Source: Dubosiella muris (GTDB taxonomy: Bacteria; Bacillota_I; Bacilli_A; Erysipelotrichales; Erysipelotrichaceae). From it: a DNA stretch of 24,000 nucleotides. Shown piece after piece: positions 1,035 through 14,276 of this stretch. The translations under genes and the position numbers were made by a program. The notes under the pieces were generated by a model. That model did no database searches. It had not been told where the DNA came from and saw only the letters and a program-made list of their open reading frames with translations. Position 1 is the stretch's first letter. The number at the start of each line of letters is the position of its first letter. Location of the stretch: NCBI RefSeq assembly GCF_004793885.1, contig NZ_SRYG01000006.1, positions 1,971 through 25,970 on the forward strand, in the 5' to 3' direction.

Positions 1035-1133
1035 TATACCCGTTCGGGTGTTGATTTGTGCTGAATGTCCAATTTTATACCCGAAAAGGTATAAAATGGC
1101 TATTTTTGTTGAATATATACCCGAAAGGGTATA
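1035..1133. promoter_or_regulatory. Array of three 18-bp operator-like palindromes (TATACC-N6-GGTATA) upstream of the HTH/HipS/HipT operon
   Basis: O1 1035-1052 is TATACC-CGTTCG-GGTGTT (right arm 4/6). O2 1076-1093 is TATACC-CGAAAA-GGTATA (perfect). O3 1116-1133 is TATACC-CGAAAG-GGTATA (perfect). Centres are 41 and 40 bp apart. O3 fills the spacer of the predicted promoter. Confidence 0.7.
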
Positions 1134-1137
1134 AAAT
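1109..1137 (+). promoter_or_regulatory. Sigma-A-type promoter of the hip-like operon, possibly giving a leaderless mRNA
   Basis: TTGAAT (1109-1114), 17 nt, TAAAAT (1132-1137). Six nt separate the -10 from the ATG at 1144, and there is no Shine-Dalgarno between them. Confidence 0.5.
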
Positions 1138-1143
1138 AAAAAC

Positions 1144-1353
1144 ATGACAACGATTGGAAACTATATCAAAACGGAACGAAGAAAACTGGGAATCACGCAG
1201 GAGGAGTTCGCGCTGCGGGCCGGACTGGGACTGCGGTTTGTCCGTGAGCTGGAACAGGGAAAGGAAACGGTTCGAATGGATAAGGTGAACAAGGCGCTGC
1301 GGATGTTTGGCAAGGAAGCGGTGCCGGGTGATTTGGATCGGAGCGAGGAATGA
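1144..1353 (+). CDS. hipB: XRE/y4mF-type helix-turn-helix protein, HipB-like component of a HipBST-type module
   Basis: 69 aa. The HTH signature is LGITQEEFALRAGLGLRFVRELEQGK. Its stop overlaps the next start (ATGA at 1350-1353). Confidence 0.85.
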   Translation: MTTIGNYIKTERRKLGITQEEFALRAGLGLRFVRELEQGKETVRMDKVNKALRMFGKEAVPGDLDRSEE

Positions 1354-1673
1354 GAAAAGGAAGTGTATGGGTGGAGGAACGAAAAGCCGGAACGATTGAA
1401 GAGACGGATCGCGGATACCGGTTTTCCTATGAAAAAGACTATTTAGCCATGAAAGATGCGAAGGACGTCAGTTTGACTTTGCCGCTTCATGATGAACCTT
1501 ATGAATCGTCTGTGTTATTTCCTTTTTTTGATGGATTGATTCCGGAAGGCTGGCTATATGATGTGACGGTTCGAAACTGGAAGCTCGATCGTAAAGATCG
1601 TTTTGGCGTATTGCTTGTCGCCTGTAAAGATGCCATTGGAAATGTATCCATATGGGGGGAGAATGAAAGATGA
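1350..1673 (+). CDS. hipS: HipA N-terminal-subdomain protein (HipS-like, Couple_hipA type)
   Basis: 107 aa. The motif FPFFDGLIPEGW is typical of HipA N-terminal domains. GGAG lies 6 nt upstream. ATGA overlaps occur on both sides. Confidence 0.8.
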   Translation: MRKGSVWVEERKAGTIEETDRGYRFSYEKDYLAMKDAKDVSLTLPLHDEPYESSVLFPFFDGLIPEGWLYDVTVRNWKLDRKDRFGVLLVACKDAIGNVSIWGENER

Positions 1674-2629
1674 AATGTTTGTATTGCGGAAAGGAGATCG
1701 TCGATCCCGCGCCGGAAGAAATGGAGTCACAATGGCATACAGAATGTACTAAAAAATTTTTCGGAATGACTTTGCATCCGGTTCTTGATTTAGATGATTC
1801 GATCTTGCGGGAAATCGCTCGAAAAACGGTAAGCGAAGGATATACGGTGCCTGGCGTTCAAAAAAAGCTTTCTTTGCATTTGATCGAAGAAGAGAAGGGA
1901 TCGCGGTTAACGATCGTAGATTATCCGGCAGGATATATTTTAAAACCACAAACGGGAAAATTTTCCTATCTTCCAGAATTTGAGCAGTTGGGAATGCGCC
2001 TTGCGCAAATTGCTAAGATTCCTACCGTTCCATTCGGGTTGATTCGATTAAAAGATGGGACGTTGGCGTATATCACGAAACGAATTGACCGGTTGGAGAA
2101 AAAGAAAAAAGTCACAAAGCTGGCGATGGAAGATTTTTGCCAGCTTCAGAAACGTTTGACGGAAGACAAATACAACAGTTCTTATGAGCGGTGCGCAAAA
2201 ACAATAAAAAAATATTCGGCTTTCTATCAATTCGACTTAACTGAATTGTTTATCCGACTCGTTTTTGCGTTTCTCATTGGCAATTCCGATATGCATTTAA
2301 AAAACTTTTCGTTGATTCAAAACAAAGAAGGGGTGTATCAGCTTTCTCCGGTATATGATCAGCTTCCTGTTAACATCATAATGTCTAAAGATTTCGATCA
2401 AATGGCTTTAACGTTGAATGGAAAAAAGCGAAATTTGAGGCGAGGCGATTTTTTGAAGTTCGCGCATTCGATTGGGATTGAAAAGAAAACAGCTGAAAGA
2501 CTGATTGAGCGGATGCTGAAAAATATTGGCCGCTTTTTGGAAGCGTGCGAACAATCTTTTTTGCCCGAAGAAGAAAAAGAAAACGTGAAACGATTGATCC
2601 TGGAGCGGGCGGAATCGCTTCACGGATAA
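1670..2629 (+). CDS. hipT: HipA-C-terminal-type Ser/Thr kinase (HipT-like toxin) with an N-terminal Cys2-His-Cys knuckle
   Basis: 319 aa. The P-loop-like motif is YTVPGVQKK (T59). The catalytic motif is GNSDMHLKN (D207 at 2288-2290). YDQLP places D230 23 residues after D207, the spacing I recall for E. coli HipA D309/D332. GGGGGAG lies 8 nt upstream of the ATG. C3, C6, H23 and C26 sit at the N-terminus. Confidence 0.85.
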   Translation: MKCLYCGKEIVDPAPEEMESQWHTECTKKFFGMTLHPVLDLDDSILREIARKTVSEGYTVPGVQKKLSLHLIEEEKGSRLTIVDYPAGYILKPQTGKFSYLPEFEQLGMRLAQIAKIPTVPFGLIRLKDGTLAYITKRIDRLEKKKKVTKLAMEDFCQLQKRLTEDKYNSSYERCAKTIKKYSAFYQFDLTELFIRLVFAFLIGNSDMHLKNFSLIQNKEGVYQLSPVYDQLPVNIIMSKDFDQMALTLNGKKRNLRRGDFLKFAHSIGIEKKTAERLIERMLKNIGRFLEACEQSFLPEEEKENVKRLILERAESLHG

Positions 2630-2830: not shown

Positions 2831-3814
2831 TTAAAAGGTACCATCCTCCCGGTCTTTCAGAGCAGTATACGCGGTTTGTGCAAAATAGTTCATCGCTTCG
2901 ACAGGATAAGAGCCAGACGCCGTTTCCCCCGTCAGCATAATCGAGGACGCCCCATTGTAAACCGCGTGGTAAATATCGGATATTTTCGCCCGTGTCGGGA
3001 TGGGAGAAGTCATCATCGAGTGCAGCATTTGCGTCACGATCATATACGGCTTTTCATGCCTGCGACATATTTTCTCCAAGTCGTGCTGCGCGCTGGCCAG
3101 ATGGACAAGACCAACCGAATCGGCAAGATCTCCACGGGCGATGATCAATTCATCGCAATACGGAAGCAGGGATTCCGCCATCGCGATTCCTTCTTTTGAT
3201 TCGATCTTGGCGTATAGGCAGGCGTTTTTTAGACCACACGCATCCATTTGCGCACGAACCTTTATCAAATCTTCTGTGCTGCGAACAAACGGCTGCATGA
3301 TGCCGGTGACGCCATATTGCGCCGCGCACGATAAATTATCGAAGTCTTCTTTTGTCAAAACCGGCAAAGGGATCGACACATTTTGGATGGTGATACTTTT
3401 CCGGGGAAGAAGCAGGCCGCCCCGGAGAACTTTGGATTTCTCATGATCTACGGTTTCAAGCAGGATCCTGCCATCGTCCACGAGGATTTGGACACCAGTT
3501 TTTAAATAGGGTCGCACACAATCCGGAAATCCAAGCGTGTTCGTCATCACGATATGATCTGTTTCCAGTGGCAAAGGCGATAAAGAAGCGGAGGTTCTTA
3601 ATTCCGGACCTTGCATATCTATAAGAAGCTGAGGAGAAACGCCGCACCGCTTGGCCGCGATATGAAAGTTGGCGATCCAGTCGGCATGTTGCGCCAGATT
3701 GCCATGCGACAAGTTCAGCCGCATCCCTGTGGCACCAGCCCGAAACAAAGCCATAATCGTTTCGACTTCATGGCAGGCCGGGCCAAGCGTTCCGAATATA
3801 TAAAGGTCTTTCAT
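2831..3814 (-). CDS. Short pyruvate-kinase-family protein (A and B domains only, no C-terminal domain)
   Basis: PK motifs are present: GTLGPA, MRLNLSHG, DMQGPELR, AKIESKEG, ARGDLA, TQMLHSM, PTRAKISD and MLTGETASGSYP. I chose the ATG at 3814 (MKDLYIFGTLGP aligns with PK N-termini) over the TTG at 3829 in the ORF track. The ATG lies 1 nt after the ldh stop. Confidence 0.75.
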   Translation of the reverse strand: MKDLYIFGTLGPACHEVETIMALFRAGATGMRLNLSHGNLAQHADWIANFHIAAKRCGVSPQLLIDMQGPELRTSASLSPLPLETDHIVMTNTLGFPDCVRPYLKTGVQILVDDGRILLETVDHEKSKVLRGGLLLPRKSITIQNVSIPLPVLTKEDFDNLSCAAQYGVTGIMQPFVRSTEDLIKVRAQMDACGLKNACLYAKIESKEGIAMAESLLPYCDELIIARGDLADSVGLVHLASAQHDLEKICRRHEKPYMIVTQMLHSMMTSPIPTRAKISDIYHAVYNGASSIMLTGETASGSYPVEAMNYFAQTAYTALKDREDGTF

Positions 3815-3815
3815 A

Positions 3816-4775
3816 TTAACGACTCTCAAGTACCGGATTCACAGTTTCCGTCCAGATTTTTTCTAACAACCGGCAGCTATCCAAAAACCGCTGCTGCTCG
3901 GCGGGTTCAAGCTCAAGCTCCAGCTTTTCAATGACGCCTTTCGCCCCGATGATAGCAGGAACCCCGTTATAAATACCCGTATAACCATATTCACCATTTT
4001 GTTTAGCCGAAACGGTAAGAATGCTGTTTTCGTCATTTAAAACGGCTTGGACAAGTCGATTGAGCGTCATTCCAATCCCGTAATATGTCGATTTTTTCCG
4101 ATTGACGATTTCGTACCCGGCATTGCGCACCTCGTCAAAGACTTCTTCCAGCATGTCTTCGTCGATTTTACGGGACTTCAATACATTCCGTATGGTCTTG
4201 CTTCCAATGCAGGCATGGGACCATGGCACAAAGCTCGAATCTCCGTGTTCGCCAAATACGTAAGCATGAATATTGTAAGGAGAAACCTGGAGACATTCGC
4301 TTAGACGAAAACGCAAACGAGCCGTATCCAGCAAGGTTCCCGTACCAATGACCCGGTTCGTCGGAAGGTTGGACACTTTCTGCGCGACCGCTGTCATTAA
4401 ATCAACCGGATTGGTCGCCACGATCAGGATGCCGTCAAAACCGGAAGCCATGATTTGCTCGGTGACCGACTGGACGATTTTTGTGTTATCGACCGTTAAA
4501 TCCAGACGGGTCTGATCGGAGCGCTGAATGATGCCGGCAGTGATGACGACAATATCGGCGCCTTTGCAGTCGGCATAGTCACCCGCTTTCATGCGGATTT
4601 GTTTTTTGGCAAAACAGCCGGCATGCTGCAAGTCCATGGCTTCGCCAATCGCTTTTTCTTTGTTCAAGTCGATTAAAACGAGTTCATCGACATTCCCCTG
4701 AACGACTAAGCTGTAGGCAAAGCTCATTCCCACCAGCCCTGTTCCAACGAGAACGATTTTTTTATTGTTTTTCAT
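3816..4775 (-). CDS. ldh: L-lactate dehydrogenase family 2-hydroxyacid dehydrogenase
   Basis: 319 aa. Motifs are the Rossmann GTGLVG, ITAGIIQRSDQTRLDL (LDH-type Gln and Arg), LDTAR and GEHGDS (catalytic His). GGAG lies upstream of the start. Confidence 0.85.
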   Translation of the reverse strand: MKNNKKIVLVGTGLVGMSFAYSLVVQGNVDELVLIDLNKEKAIGEAMDLQHAGCFAKKQIRMKAGDYADCKGADIVVITAGIIQRSDQTRLDLTVDNTKIVQSVTEQIMASGFDGILIVATNPVDLMTAVAQKVSNLPTNRVIGTGTLLDTARLRFRLSECLQVSPYNIHAYVFGEHGDSSFVPWSHACIGSKTIRNVLKSRKIDEDMLEEVFDEVRNAGYEIVNRKKSTYYGIGMTLNRLVQAVLNDENSILTVSAKQNGEYGYTGIYNGVPAIIGAKGVIEKLELELEPAEQQRFLDSCRLLEKIWTETVNPVLESR

Positions 4776-12909: not shown

Positions 12910-14166
12910 TTATTTTTTGAAGATCCTGTATTTTGTATTCATGCCGGAACCGTTTTTTTGAATCAATCCTTTAGAGGACAACGAATGCAGAAGGCGAACG
13001 GTTTTCGCTTTGCTGAAGCCGGTCCGCTCTTCCAGCTGCGCTCTCGACAACAAAGTCGAAGAAGACAAGTTGCTTAATATCGTCTTTTCATCGGCTGAAG
13101 TCTCGATGACCGTATCCGACACGGGAAGAACAACGGTGATGGAATTGTCGTAGATTTTAAATTCCGGACTGGCTTGATAGGGGTCATAGGCTTTCTTGAC
13201 CCTTTTGATTCCGGAGCCAAACATTTCAATGTACGCGAGTCTGAAAAAGATATTTCCTAAAATTGGATTTCGCAAAAAACTGATTTGTCCATCCAGATAT
13301 TCCGCTTCGCTGATGCCGGCCGGCAATCCGCCAGGCGACGTGATTTCTATTTTGTCTTGATCCATCGAAATCCTGATTCTTGTTTGGATGTCCCATGTCC
13401 GATGGACCAAGGCGTTTGCGAGCGCTTCGCGAAACGCTTCCTTTGGAATCATTTCTTTTTGGACGCGTTGGCTCCCTTCGATTTTTTCATAACAATAATA
13501 TTTCCGGTACATTTCCATCGCTTGATGGTACATACAGAAAACGGACATATGATCATAGGTTTGACGTTCCATGAGTTCGTTGATATTCCGCCCGTATCGT
13601 ACGAGATCCACGCCTGGAAACCGGTTTTCATCCGCGACAAGAGCCGCGGCGTGATTATAGGTGTTTTTATCCATCAACCCTAATGTTTTCAAAATGTCCG
13701 GTGTTATCGTTTCGACGCCTTTCTTTTGAAAAAATTCTTTTCCAAGTTGAGAGAAAGTCAAATCTTGTATAGATGAAGGCTGTTCTTCGTAGGTTTGATT
13801 CGAACCTTCCAGAATCAGGCGGTTTAGCTCAAGACGATCCACTTCGATCGTTGCCGAATCGTTTCTTTTATACGTTTTTCCTTTATAAAAATAAGGGGTG
13901 TAAGGACCTTTCAAGATGTTCAGGGTTATGGTTTGATCTTCGTTTATATCTAAAGTGTAGGAAGGGAGCGGCTTGATCGCATCGTTGATTTTGTTTTCCA
14001 AACGCAAACAGGCGTCAACCGGATGCTCGATTCCCGGAACCGTGCCATCGTCACGGATCCCAAAAATGATTTTTCCATCGCCAAAATTTGCGTAAGCTGA
14101 TATTGTTTTTAAAAATGAATTTGTATCGACGGTTTCTTTCAATTCCAGATTCCTGCTTTCGCGCAT
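12910..14166 (-). CDS. Schlafen/AlbA_2-domain protein with an HATPase_c_4-like middle domain and a C-terminal winged HTH (COG2865-type putative regulator)
   Basis: 418 aa counted from the ATG at 14166, which is preceded by AAAGAGGTGAT. The N-terminus is ESRNLELKE...AYANFGDGKIIFGI. The middle region is EALANALVHRTW...ITSPGGLP. The C-terminus is LSRAQLEERTGFSKAKTVRLLHSLSSKGLI. Confidence 0.75.
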   Translation of the reverse strand: MRESRNLELKETVDTNSFLKTISAYANFGDGKIIFGIRDDGTVPGIEHPVDACLRLENKINDAIKPLPSYTLDINEDQTITLNILKGPYTPYFYKGKTYKRNDSATIEVDRLELNRLILEGSNQTYEEQPSSIQDLTFSQLGKEFFQKKGVETITPDILKTLGLMDKNTYNHAAALVADENRFPGVDLVRYGRNINELMERQTYDHMSVFCMYHQAMEMYRKYYCYEKIEGSQRVQKEMIPKEAFREALANALVHRTWDIQTRIRISMDQDKIEITSPGGLPAGISEAEYLDGQISFLRNPILGNIFFRLAYIEMFGSGIKRVKKAYDPYQASPEFKIYDNSITVVLPVSDTVIETSADEKTILSNLSSSTLLSRAQLEERTGFSKAKTVRLLHSLSSKGLIQKNGSGMNTKYRIFKK

Positions 14167-14186
14167 TGTGATCACCTCTTTTTGAT

Positions 14187-14215
14187 ATTGTATATCGAAT
14201 CGAGTTGGTGTGCAA
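14187..14215 (-). promoter_or_regulatory. Sigma-A-type promoter of the Schlafen-like gene
   Basis: Read on the minus strand: TTGCAC (14215-14210), 17 nt, TACAAT (14192-14187). Confidence 0.6.
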
Positions 14216-14225
14216 CGAGAGCTTC

Positions 14226-14276
14226 CTCGACTCAAAAATTTATGAGTCGAGAGCTTTATCGACTCAAGTCGACTCG
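14226..14276. repeat. Cluster of four copies of the heptamer GAGTCGA/TCGACTC, including a 9-bp-stem inverted repeat
   Basis: CTCGACTCA (14226-14234) and TGAGTCGAG (14243-14251) form a perfect inverted repeat. Further copies are TCGACTCA at 14259-14266 and GTCGACTCG at 14268-14276. Confidence 0.7.

Follow-up and report, generated by a model that had tools for sequence, protein, structure and literature searches.

The closest described relatives of the locus studied here are the tripartite HipBST systems of Escherichia coli O127:H6 and Legionella pneumophila. The E. coli O127:H6 system (PDB 7ab3, 7ab4 and 7ab5) is the founding member of the family, with HipS as the antitoxin, HipB as the repressor and a kinase, HipT(Ec), that targets TrpS. 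Residues E63 and W65 of E. coli HipS form an inhibitory wedge, as has been shown experimentally, and the Gly-rich loop in HipT(Ec) contains a dual-acceptor Ser-Ile-Ser motif, with Ser57 being autophosphorylated. In the L. pneumophila system (Lpg2368-Lpg2369-Lpg2370; PDB 7vkb, 7vkc, 7wcf, 8ezr and 8ezt), the loop of the kinase, HipT(Lp), has a single phospho-acceptor in the sequence S-V-Q. The acceptor, Ser54, is autophosphorylated (PMC9325769), and an RxDR motif holds the phospho-serine (PMC10627512, PMC9325769). Neither TrpS nor GltX rescues the toxicity of HipT(Lp). HipB-dependent repression has been shown in both systems, and in both HipT adds to repression and DNA binding. For HipT kinases, (S/T)-ψ-P loops as well as a T[IV][TP] clade have also been described (Baerentsen et al., 2023; PMC10627512). 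The same study, published in eLife, refers to a mini-domain at the N-terminus of HipT as 'of unknown significance'; neither cysteines nor zinc come up in this context, and the word zinc appears in one reference title only. The HipBA systems of E. coli K-12 and Shewanella share the kinase core, and their HTH repressor likewise has several palindromic operators, but N-subdomain-1 is fused to the kinase, the mini-domain is absent and the antitoxin is HipB, not HipS. The operators of E. coli K-12 hipBA have the sequence TATCC-N8-GGATA.

The locus lies in a 24 kb window of Dubosiella muris DNA, which is the whole stretch that we analysed. We conclude, with a probability of roughly 85%, that it is a tripartite type II toxin-antitoxin operon of the HipBST type, located on the chromosome and belonging to a Legionella-like branch with a T[IV][TP] loop. 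The L. pneumophila system has the same three-gene order and 4-bp overlaps, and is the closest solved relative of all three proteins (34–38% identity for HipT), although the hosts, a Gammaproteobacterium and gut Firmicutes, are unrelated. The reading frames are coupled by ATGA overlaps at positions 1350-1353 (hipB/hipS) and 1670-1673 (hipS/hipT). Of 80 related loci, 74 have the order hipB-hipS-hipT; the remaining six have no match for hipB, three of them being truncated by a contig end. An earlier note, made from the sequence, had described a HipBST-type split-HipA module of three chained reading frames of 69, 107 and 319 amino acids, and domain matches, gene order and catalytic residues bear this out. 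Its coordinates and its residue numbering for the Cys2-His-Cys element, the Gly-rich loop and the two catalytic aspartates are correct throughout, and the profile searches that it proposed returned a match for each of the three proteins. The features of the locus are summarized in Table 1.

Table 1. Genes, regulatory sites and protein motifs of the hipBST locus (positions in the 24 kb window).
Feature	Position	Strand	Basis
Operator-like site O1	1035..1052	.	TATACC-CGTTCG-GGTGTT; degenerate array member, 41 bp 5' of O2; fits YACC-N6-GGTR
Operator O2	1076..1093	.	Perfect palindrome TATACC-N6-GGTATA
Putative sigma-70-type promoter	1109..1137	+	-35 TTGAAT, 17-nt spacer, -10 TAAAAT
Operator O3	1116..1133	.	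Perfect palindrome TATACC-N6-GGTATA; within promoter spacer, right arm enters -10 box
hipB	1144..1353	+	69-aa Xre/Y4mF-type HTH repressor; TIGR03070 couple_hipB 4.3e-21, above cutoff
hipS	1350..1673	+	107-aa stand-alone HipA N-subdomain-1, predicted antitoxin; Couple_hipA 9e-25
HipS E66 / W68	1545-1547 / 1551-1553	+	PEGW aligned to E63/W65 of E. coli HipS
hipT	1670..2629	+	319-aa HipA_C Ser/Thr kinase, predicted toxin; HipA_C 6.5e-45
HipT N-terminal mini-domain, residues 1-41	1670..1792	+	Profile end-to-end with HipT(Ec) and HipT(Lp); pLDDT 90-95 over residues 1-40
Putative zinc site C3-x2-C6 ... H23-x2-C26	1676..1747	+	Conserved CCHC pattern
Gly-rich (P-)loop Y58-T59-V60-P61-G-V-Q-K-K66	1841..1867	+	T59 aligned to Ser54 of HipT(Lp), Ser57 of HipT(Ec)
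RxDR motif R138-I-D140-R141	2081..2092	+	R138, D140, R141 invariant; phospho-serine holder in HipT(Lp)
Catalytic motif G204-N-S-D207-M-H209-L-K-N212	2279..2305	+	Aligned to D197/H199/N202 of HipT(Lp)
Mg-binding Y229-D230	2354..2359	+	D230 aligned to D219 of HipT(Lp), D233 of HipT(Ec)

The repressor and the antitoxin are readily recognized. HipB is matched by HTH_3 (2.3e-7) and by the couple_hipB/Y4mF antitoxin model TIGR03070 (74.6 bits, cutoff 71.65), in agreement with the XRE/y4mF-type HTH that had been assigned to the first reading frame. Its nearest solved chain is HipB(Lp) (8ezt, 5.6e-6), which is similarly short (76 residues in the solved chain), whereas E. coli HipB is extended at its N-terminus by residues 1-35. 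The second reading frame, read in the earlier note as the HipA N-terminal subdomain on the strength of the segment FPFFDGLIPEGW, does contain that segment, and residues 5-101 of the protein are covered by Couple_hipA (9e-25), with a further match to TIGR03071 (1e-27). The top PDB matches of HipS are HipS(Lp) (3e-18), H. influenzae HI_0666 (7e-15) and HipS(Ec) (5e-9). Both residues of the E. coli wedge are conserved, including the tryptophan, in place of which HipS(Lp) has Ile/Met. By homology, HipS would neutralise HipT by docking on the N-lobe of the kinase in the way that N-subdomain-1 of HipA does, with E66 and W68 inserted beside the Gly-rich loop, so that the loop is kept ejected and inactive.

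HipT has the kinase core that had been proposed for the third reading frame. HipA_C covers residues 60-286, and all catalytic residues are present. A profile built from 61 relatives that are 34–54% identical to HipT aligns full-length to HipT(Lp) (7e-96; 2.7e-43 for HipT itself) and to HipT(Ec) (6e-45), and to HipA solely from the Gly-rich loop onward. Among these relatives K66, K92, R138, D140, R141, D207, K211, N212 and D230 are invariant, and H209 is at least 90% conserved. The AlphaFold2 (AF2) model of HipT (mean pLDDT 83) superimposes on HipT(Lp) (7wcf) with a TM-score of 0.85 over 321 columns; the similarity to HipT(Ec) is lower, with 22–24% identity and a TM-score of 0.77–0.80. HipT is thus predicted, by homology, to be an active Ser/Thr kinase that, when free, would be toxic by phosphorylating a translation factor and halting growth.

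The Gly-rich loop, with T-V-P in place of S-V-Q in HipT(Lp) and Ser-Ile-Ser in HipT(Ec), had been noted as unusual. It is not: the sequence Y-T-V-P-G-V-Q-K-K fits the published T[IV][TP] or (S/T)-ψ-P group exactly (Baerentsen et al., 2023, Fig. 5), the acceptor being followed by a small aliphatic residue, and an [ST]-x-P loop occurs in 32 of 129 representative clusters. As in HipT(Lp), there is a single acceptor and an RxDR motif, and the catalytic residues are shared; the third residue of the loop is Pro, where HipT(Lp) has Gln. T59 is the likely site of autophosphorylation. By homology, the substrate is probably an aminoacyl-tRNA synthetase. Assignment of TrpS as the target was considered and rejected, as the loop is T-V-P, not S-ψ-S, and HipT is nearer to HipT(Lp), the target of which is not TrpS. 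It is plausible, judging from the sequences, that target recognition differs from that of E. coli HipT, given that each of the three proteins has its nearest counterpart in the Legionella system.

Upstream of hipB we found three putative HipB operators conforming to YACC-N6-GGTR and phased 40-41 bp apart. The palindrome TATACC-N6-GGTATA is matched twice in the window, where 0.01 matches are expected, and none of 100 shuffled sequences contained two; O2 and O3 share a 22-nt direct repeat with a spacing of 40 bp. The array is not particular to this locus. Of 74 homologous loci, 70 have sites of the form YACC-N6-GGTR upstream of hipB, with a density of 12.8 per kb against a background of 0.042 per kb; there are up to three sites per locus, and 72 of 82 neighbouring pairs are spaced 40-42 bp apart. 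The promoter matches the consensus at 9 of 12 positions, which for the scan by itself is not above the shuffled expectation; we base its assignment instead on conservation across loci. Directly 5' of hipB, an arrangement of TTGACA/TTGAAA, operator and a TATAAT-like element is conserved in the homologous loci, and the geometry of O3, with the operator in the spacer and one arm reaching into the -10 box, recurs in many of them. The interval between the -10 box and the ATG of hipB is 6 nt, and the mRNA is therefore probably leaderless.

These features point to autoregulation by HipB through the operators in its promoter. A HipB dimer would bind the three phased palindromes at 1035, 1076 and 1116 and, because the last of them overlaps the -10 box, would shut off transcription of hipBST, probably aided by bound HipT. 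The conserved array in 41-bp phase, in which the right arm of the last operator forms the -10 box, provides a ready model of the HipB binding site for this branch.

The surroundings of the operon bear on a further suggestion in the earlier note, namely that the module might be of the abortive-infection type. Infection would then free HipT from HipS, and the kinase would stop translation before the phage finishes, so that the module would serve mainly in anti-phage defence and not as a stabilising or persistence toxin-antitoxin system. HipA-family kinases have lately been validated in defence, for instance HipAD / DS-6 (PMC13092281). The module has a G+C content of 38–46% compared with 50–57% in the flanks, and related modules are scattered over Clostridia, Treponema, Bacilli and Sodaliphilus, the low G+C content and patchy distribution being the pattern expected of a mobile accessory module. 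PADLOC gave weak matches to the candidate system PDC-M03A/B, but these are partial and confined to the catalytic motif: residues 180-230 of HipT match 51 of the 280 positions of the PDC-M03 profile (1e-11), and residues 13-61 of HipS match part of the 245-position PDC-M03 model (6.7e-5). As neither protein matches over its full length, membership in PDC-M03 was rejected. Moreover, the flanking genes are metabolic (ABC_ATPase, pyruvate-kinase barrel, LDH, PTS regulator and peptidases), and the locus is in neither a defence island nor a prophage; phage defence by any HipBST system was not found in the literature searched. A primarily defensive role is, consequently, without support at this locus, and we consider it unlikely, although it is compatible with the toxin-antitoxin reading and does not imply a different biochemistry. 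In the assembly collection, 799 indexed blocks contain the identical kinase sequence.

The most general observation concerns the Cys2-His-Cys (CCHC) element at the N-terminus of HipT. The earlier note had singled it out as an unusual feature not found in model HipT or HipA proteins. The latter part is right: in HipT(Lp) and HipT(Ec) the 61-relative profile aligns from residue 2 or 3 onward, and the mini-domain of both keeps the first Cys only, three of the four ligands having been lost, while HipA lacks the mini-domain altogether. In HipT(Lp) the pairs read C-T ... S-G where C-C ... H-C is found here, and HipT(Lp) therefore has no zinc site. The element is also genuine and conserved, but it is not peculiar to this locus. 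Among 130 N-termini aligned from related kinases (the query included), 118 have it, which makes it the majority state. Single-chain proteins of 439-457 residues with Couple_hipA and HipA_C domains (for example P0178, P0180 and P0230) belong to the same branch (36–40% identity) and have the same CCHC element; a HipS-like domain is joined upstream by a linker of ~25-30 residues, and the knuckle is therefore internal in these proteins.

The alignment of homologues that the note had called for shows that the four residues are conserved on a par with the catalytic residues K66, K92, D207, N212 and D230: in the 61 relatives C3 is invariant and C6, H23 and C26 are at least 90% conserved. The consensus of the mini-domain in these proteins consists only of C, C, Y/W-H, C and F-G. 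The positions of the ligands are fixed, whereas the spacer between the two pairs varies from 10 to 16 residues, and N-termini without the full element retain one ligand or none, indicating all-or-none loss. Translation from Met33 was considered as the true start of HipT and rejected, since nearly all relatives have Thr or Ser at position 33 and conservation is strong across residues 1-32. In the AF2 model, DSSP assigns a bridge between residues 2 and 9, which places C3 and C6 in a short hairpin (pLDDT 90–95), and H23 and C26 are at the start of a helix spanning residues 24-31; this arrangement would be consistent with a treble-clef-like zinc finger.

Scans of HipT residues 1-57 against Pfam, NCBIfam and PADLOC gave nothing significant (TRASH at E 0.11 only), and the first 71 residues, when searched against PDB sequences, returned matches at chance level only (Rad50 zinc hook, paxillin LIM and C2H2 finger; E of at least 0.08). 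A Foldseek search with the mini-domain model yielded no significant match (best E 1.7); ranks 1, 2, 4, 8, 9 and 10 of the ten matches listed are small zinc modules. In the papers searched on HipT, HipBST or HipA in combination with zinc we found no description of a metal site, and the CCHC site appears to be a family-wide feature that has so far not been described.

From the sequence pattern and the model, supported by homology, it is likely that the CCHC element binds zinc in a structural role. The first 41 residues of HipT would form a mini-domain held together by a structural zinc ion coordinated by Cys3, Cys6, His23 and Cys26, and such a site would be shared by about 90% of the related clusters. 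The mini-domain, composed of the knuckle hairpin and the helix start, is predicted to pack on the N-lobe just before the helix that enters the Gly-rich loop. The E. coli and Legionella HipT proteins fold and function without the ligands, so that the zinc site is not a general requirement for kinase activity.

A more far-reaching possibility is that the mini-domain is a functional module, serving either as a latch, sensitive to zinc or redox state, on the HipS-controlled helix and loop, or as an element for substrate recognition; taken together, we regard this as unlikely. In the first form, oxidation or loss of zinc would unfold the mini-domain and alter HipS binding or the position of the loop, thereby tying release of the kinase to redox or metal stress. 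The mini-domain leads directly into the HipS-controlled helix and loop, and the ligand-less Legionella mini-domain is ordered in free HipT and becomes disordered once HipS is bound, with only 261-272 resolved residues in the HipS-HipT complexes. Control of antitoxin turnover by zinc and oxidation is documented for MqsA (PMC8808172). The host clade consists of strict gut and rumen anaerobes, in which oxidative signalling would be unusual, and the zinc-free model HipTs are under normal HipS control. CCHC sites adjoining a helix are usually structural. On balance a regulatory switch is decidedly unlikely.

Much the same degree of doubt applies to the idea that the four residues bind no metal and are retained for packing or for disulfides. 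Retention of the first Cys in variants from which the other three ligands are gone, HipT of E. coli and Legionella included, implies a zinc-independent role for C3 at least. However, two pairs of the form CxxC ... HxxC, with fixed ligands, a variable spacer and all-or-none loss, constitute a classic signature of tetrahedral zinc coordination; disulfides are improbable in the cytoplasm of an anaerobe; and the six small zinc modules among the ten structural matches listed, while none is significant, point the same way.

The second form of the functional reading, in which the knuckle contacts operator DNA, HipB or the substrate, the last being an aminoacyl-tRNA synthetase or a tRNA, and so sets target or promoter specificity, is very improbable: small zinc knuckles commonly bind nucleic acids, HipT contributes to DNA binding in the two model systems, targets vary among HipT branches, and the mini-domain here contains the basic residues K8, K28 and K29, but these are not conserved in the wider family, and the knuckle is internal in the fused proteins.

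The locus itself represents a further HipBST operon in a common gut Firmicute, and the point of general relevance is the CCHC site of the mini-domain. The HipT mini-domain thereby gains a testable identity, a conserved Cys2-His-Cys site found in about 90% of related protein clusters. Both HipT proteins that have been crystallised carry degenerate versions of the mini-domain without the CCHC element. Loop ejection and the HipS-induced disorder of the mini-domain, as described for the E. coli or Legionella proteins, should therefore be checked in a zinc-bearing form before they are extrapolated to the family. If the mini-domain did prove to be a functional module, the two zinc-less models from which the present mechanism derives would differ in regulation or targeting from most natural HipBST systems and from most of the fused HipS-knuckle-kinase proteins.

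The three open reading frames of 69, 107 and 319 aa reported in the earlier note were found where it had placed them, joined by two ATGA stop/start overlaps (1350-1353 and 1670-1673), and every residue number it gave for the products (C3, C6, H23, C26, T59-V60-P61, D207 and D230) is correct. Searches with the HTH, Couple_hipA and HipA_C models returned all three families (see table); the Couple_hipA domain spans ORF2 at full length, and the ORF1 product scores 74.6 bits against TIGR03070, the Y4mF/"couple_hipB" antitoxin family, passing the curated cutoff of 71.65. Among solved structures, the Legionella pneumophila proteins HipT(Lp), HipS(Lp) and HipB(Lp) are the best matches of the three products (2.7e-43, 3e-18 and 5.6e-6, respectively). 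E. coli O127 HipT (8e-18) and HipS (5e-9) rank second, and canonical HipA gives weak matches only. Along its entire length, the profile of A1, an alignment of 61 relatives, could be aligned with both HipT(Lp) (7e-96) and HipT(Ec) (6e-45), whereas its alignment with HipA begins at the Gly-rich loop. An AlphaFold2 model of HipT (mean pLDDT 83, pTM 0.85) superposes on HipT(Lp) (7wcf) with a TM score of 0.85 over 321 columns, compared with 0.77-0.80 for HipT(Ec) and 0.63-0.69 for HipA. The family matches and the closest structures uphold the proposed HipBST-type identity: the locus is very likely a HipBST type II toxin-antitoxin operon, and the module is one further member of an already known kind. 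An anti-phage abortive-infection role for the module is unlikely; its neighbours are metabolic genes, encoding an ABC_ATPase, a pyruvate-kinase barrel protein, LDH, a PRD/EIIA regulator and peptidases.

Coordinates of the hipBST genes, their putative control elements and two nearby genes
Feature	Position	Strand	Description
operator-like site O1	1035-1052		third, degenerate copy
operator O2	1076-1093		perfect palindrome TATACC-N6-GGTATA
putative promoter	1109-1137		-35 TTGAAT, -10 TAAAAT; flanks last operator, right arm of which enters -10 box
operator O3	1116-1133		perfect palindrome TATACC-N6-GGTATA
ORF1 (hipB)	1144-1353	+	69 aa; HTH_3 2.3e-7; TIGR03070 match
ORF2 (hipS)	1350-1673	+	107 aa; Couple_hipA 9e-25; TIGR03071 1e-27
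ORF3 (hipT)	1670-2629	+	319 aa; HipA_C kinase, 6.5e-45
pyruvate kinase barrel protein	2831-3829	-	332 aa; barrel domain match only, without C-terminal domain
Schlafen AlbA_2 + HATPase_c_4 protein	12910-14235	-	441 aa

Of 80 loci taken from species-representative genomes, 74 keep the order hipB-hipS-hipT; six have no hipB match, which a contig end accounts for in three. The loci belong mostly to gut and rumen Clostridia, with some in Treponema, Bacilli and a Bacteroidota MAG. In the assembly collection, 799 indexed blocks contain the identical kinase (GCA_948962575.1 is one example), and its neighbours did not differ in the 23 contigs read. The G+C content of the module (1000-2750) is 38-46%, against 50-57% in the flanking genes, which is consistent with horizontal acquisition. 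A terminator-like hairpin with a T run (972-1000, AAAAGGGC-GAGT-GCCCTTTT) lies directly 3' of the upstream ABC_ATPase gene, so that hipBST appears to be a separate transcription unit. The interval separating hipT from the convergent pyruvate-kinase-like gene holds an AT-rich inverted repeat (AAGGTAAAA ... TTTTACCTT, 2750-2789) with a T run after it, which may serve as a weak terminator in both directions; a consensus scan did not call it. The barrel gene overlaps the start of the L-lactate dehydrogenase gene (3816-4775, - strand). Among the neighbours in that part of the window which was scanned, the AlbA_2/HATPase_c_4 protein alone has any link to defence or regulation.

Upstream of hipB, three operator-like sites are spaced by 41 and 40 bp. 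The perfect palindrome occurs twice in the window against 0.01 expected, and none of 100 shuffles contained two matches. The consensus YACC-N6-GGTR occurs in the 160 bp that precede hipB in 70 of 74 homologous loci; its density is 12.8 per kb there and 0.042 per kb in the remainder of these loci. Of 82 pairs of adjacent sites, 72 lie 40-42 bp apart, and 31 loci have three sites. The layout of TTGACA, operator and TATAAT-like box is also kept. HipB-dependent repression, strengthened by HipT, is experimentally known in the E. coli and Legionella systems, and strong comparative support suggests that HipB would repress through the operator array here. The TAAAAT box is separated by 6 nt from the hipB ATG, with no Shine-Dalgarno sequence (1132-1146), and the mRNA is therefore probably leaderless. 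In the window and in 23 loci, 12-15 nt lie between the end of the last operator and the start codon, again without a Shine-Dalgarno sequence; this leaderless-type layout is found in about a third of the homologous loci, the rest having a 30-40 nt leader with GGAGG.

The family-invariant catalytic residues of A1 (K66, K92, R138/D140/R141 of the RxDR motif, D207, K211, N212 and D230) are all present, and their counterparts in HipT(Lp) and HipT(Ec) are essential by mutation (PMC9325769). In alignment, P65-E66-G67-W68 of HipS matches E63/W65 in the E. coli protein, a wedge that experimentally neutralises HipT. From these conserved residues, HipT would be an active kinase, which HipS would inactivate by means of the E66/W68 wedge and by ejecting its Gly-rich loop. 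This kinase is closer to HipT(Lp), whose toxicity neither TrpS nor GltX rescues, than to the E. coli TrpS kinase HipT(Ec).

The Thr-Val-Pro loop, at first taken to be unusual, belongs to a published clade. The 48 known HipT orthologues have been grouped by loop motif into (S/T)-psi-P, T[IV][TP], SIQ (Legionella) and S-psi-S (E. coli) classes, Pro or Gln being frequent at the second position (Baerentsen et al., 2023; PMC10627512). We sampled cluster representatives (50% identity) from 1.84 billion proteins; of the 150 best, 129 have a complete N-terminus, and 32 of these carry [ST]-x-P (including 11 TVP and 8 TIP). T59 aligns with Ser54 of HipT(Lp), which is autophosphorylated, and is likely the equivalent site. 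E. coli HipT has Ser57 at this position; 54 of the 129 have a non-phosphorylatable residue there (Ala, Gly, Val or another), often with Thr two residues on (AVT, AIT and similar); autophosphorylation here is thus not universal in the family.

The Cys2-His-Cys knuckle (C3-x2-C6 ... H23-x2-C26, 1676-1747) is real and, as suspected, absent from the model HipTs, but it is not a local oddity. The pattern M-x-C-L-x-C ... W-H-x-x-C-x-K-x-F-F occurs in 120 of the 120 closest database proteins, and CxxC ... HxxC in 118 of the 129 representatives. Across A1, whose members are 34-54% identical to the query, C3 never varies and each of C6, H23 and C26 is conserved at 90% or more, a level equal to that of the catalytic residues; the ligand positions stay constant, with a spacer of 10 to 16 residues between the two pairs. 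Loss is all-or-none, variants retaining the first Cys alone (C-[TS]-[SNT]-[AGS]). In profile alignments HipT(Lp) (MKHC-PIT ... Y-S-QR-G) and HipT(Ec) (ANC-RIL ... Y-S-TQ-G) fall in this minority. That the first Cys (1676-1678) persists in proteins without the other three ligands, including these two, suggests a role beyond zinc binding.

Single-chain proteins of 439-457 aa (Couple_hipA, linker, knuckle, HipA_C), which are natural HipS-HipT fusions, have the knuckle too; in P0178, P0180, P0193, P0223, P0230 and P0259 it is internal, after a linker of about 25-30 residues. Two longer relatives, P0225 (630 aa) and P0242 (632 aa), share the knuckle and carry a C-terminal extension of about 320 residues after the kinase, without a Pfam match at E up to 1e-3, and may be related to long HipL-type kinases. 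P0256 (198 aa), which shares 72% identity with the query across residues 1-112, has Tyr for the first Cys and additional upstream sequence; it may represent a pseudogene, or an artefact of assembly or of a frameshift.

Residues 1-40 are modelled with pLDDT 90-95, with a short hairpin around C3/C6 and H23/C26 at the beginning of helix 24-31, a predicted layout like that of a knuckle-plus-helix, treble-clef-like zinc site. We hypothesize that the putative CCHC site binds one structural zinc, stabilising the mini-domain (the first 41 residues) on the N-lobe (probability about 0.75). The mini-domain modelled in isolation (pLDDT 80) had no significant Foldseek neighbour; its best matches, all at E >1 and suggestive only, include YacG, LIM, RING, UBZ and SBP zinc modules. 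Residues 4-28 of Lpg2370 were previously aligned with the E3 ligase FANCL (Zhen et al.; PMC9325769). That the knuckle acts as a regulatory latch or specificity element is quite unlikely. It is also unlikely that the site is a redox or zinc switch, and equally so that its residues bind no metal. Least probable is a recognition element.

No Pfam or NCBIfam model covers the knuckle region in a scan of the kinase, and a literature search found no mention of zinc or cysteines in HipT, HipA or HipBST; the conserved site appears to be undescribed so far. CCHC is the usual state in the family, from which the model systems depart. The site provides the HipT mini-domain with an identity that can be tested, and both crystallised HipTs are without it.
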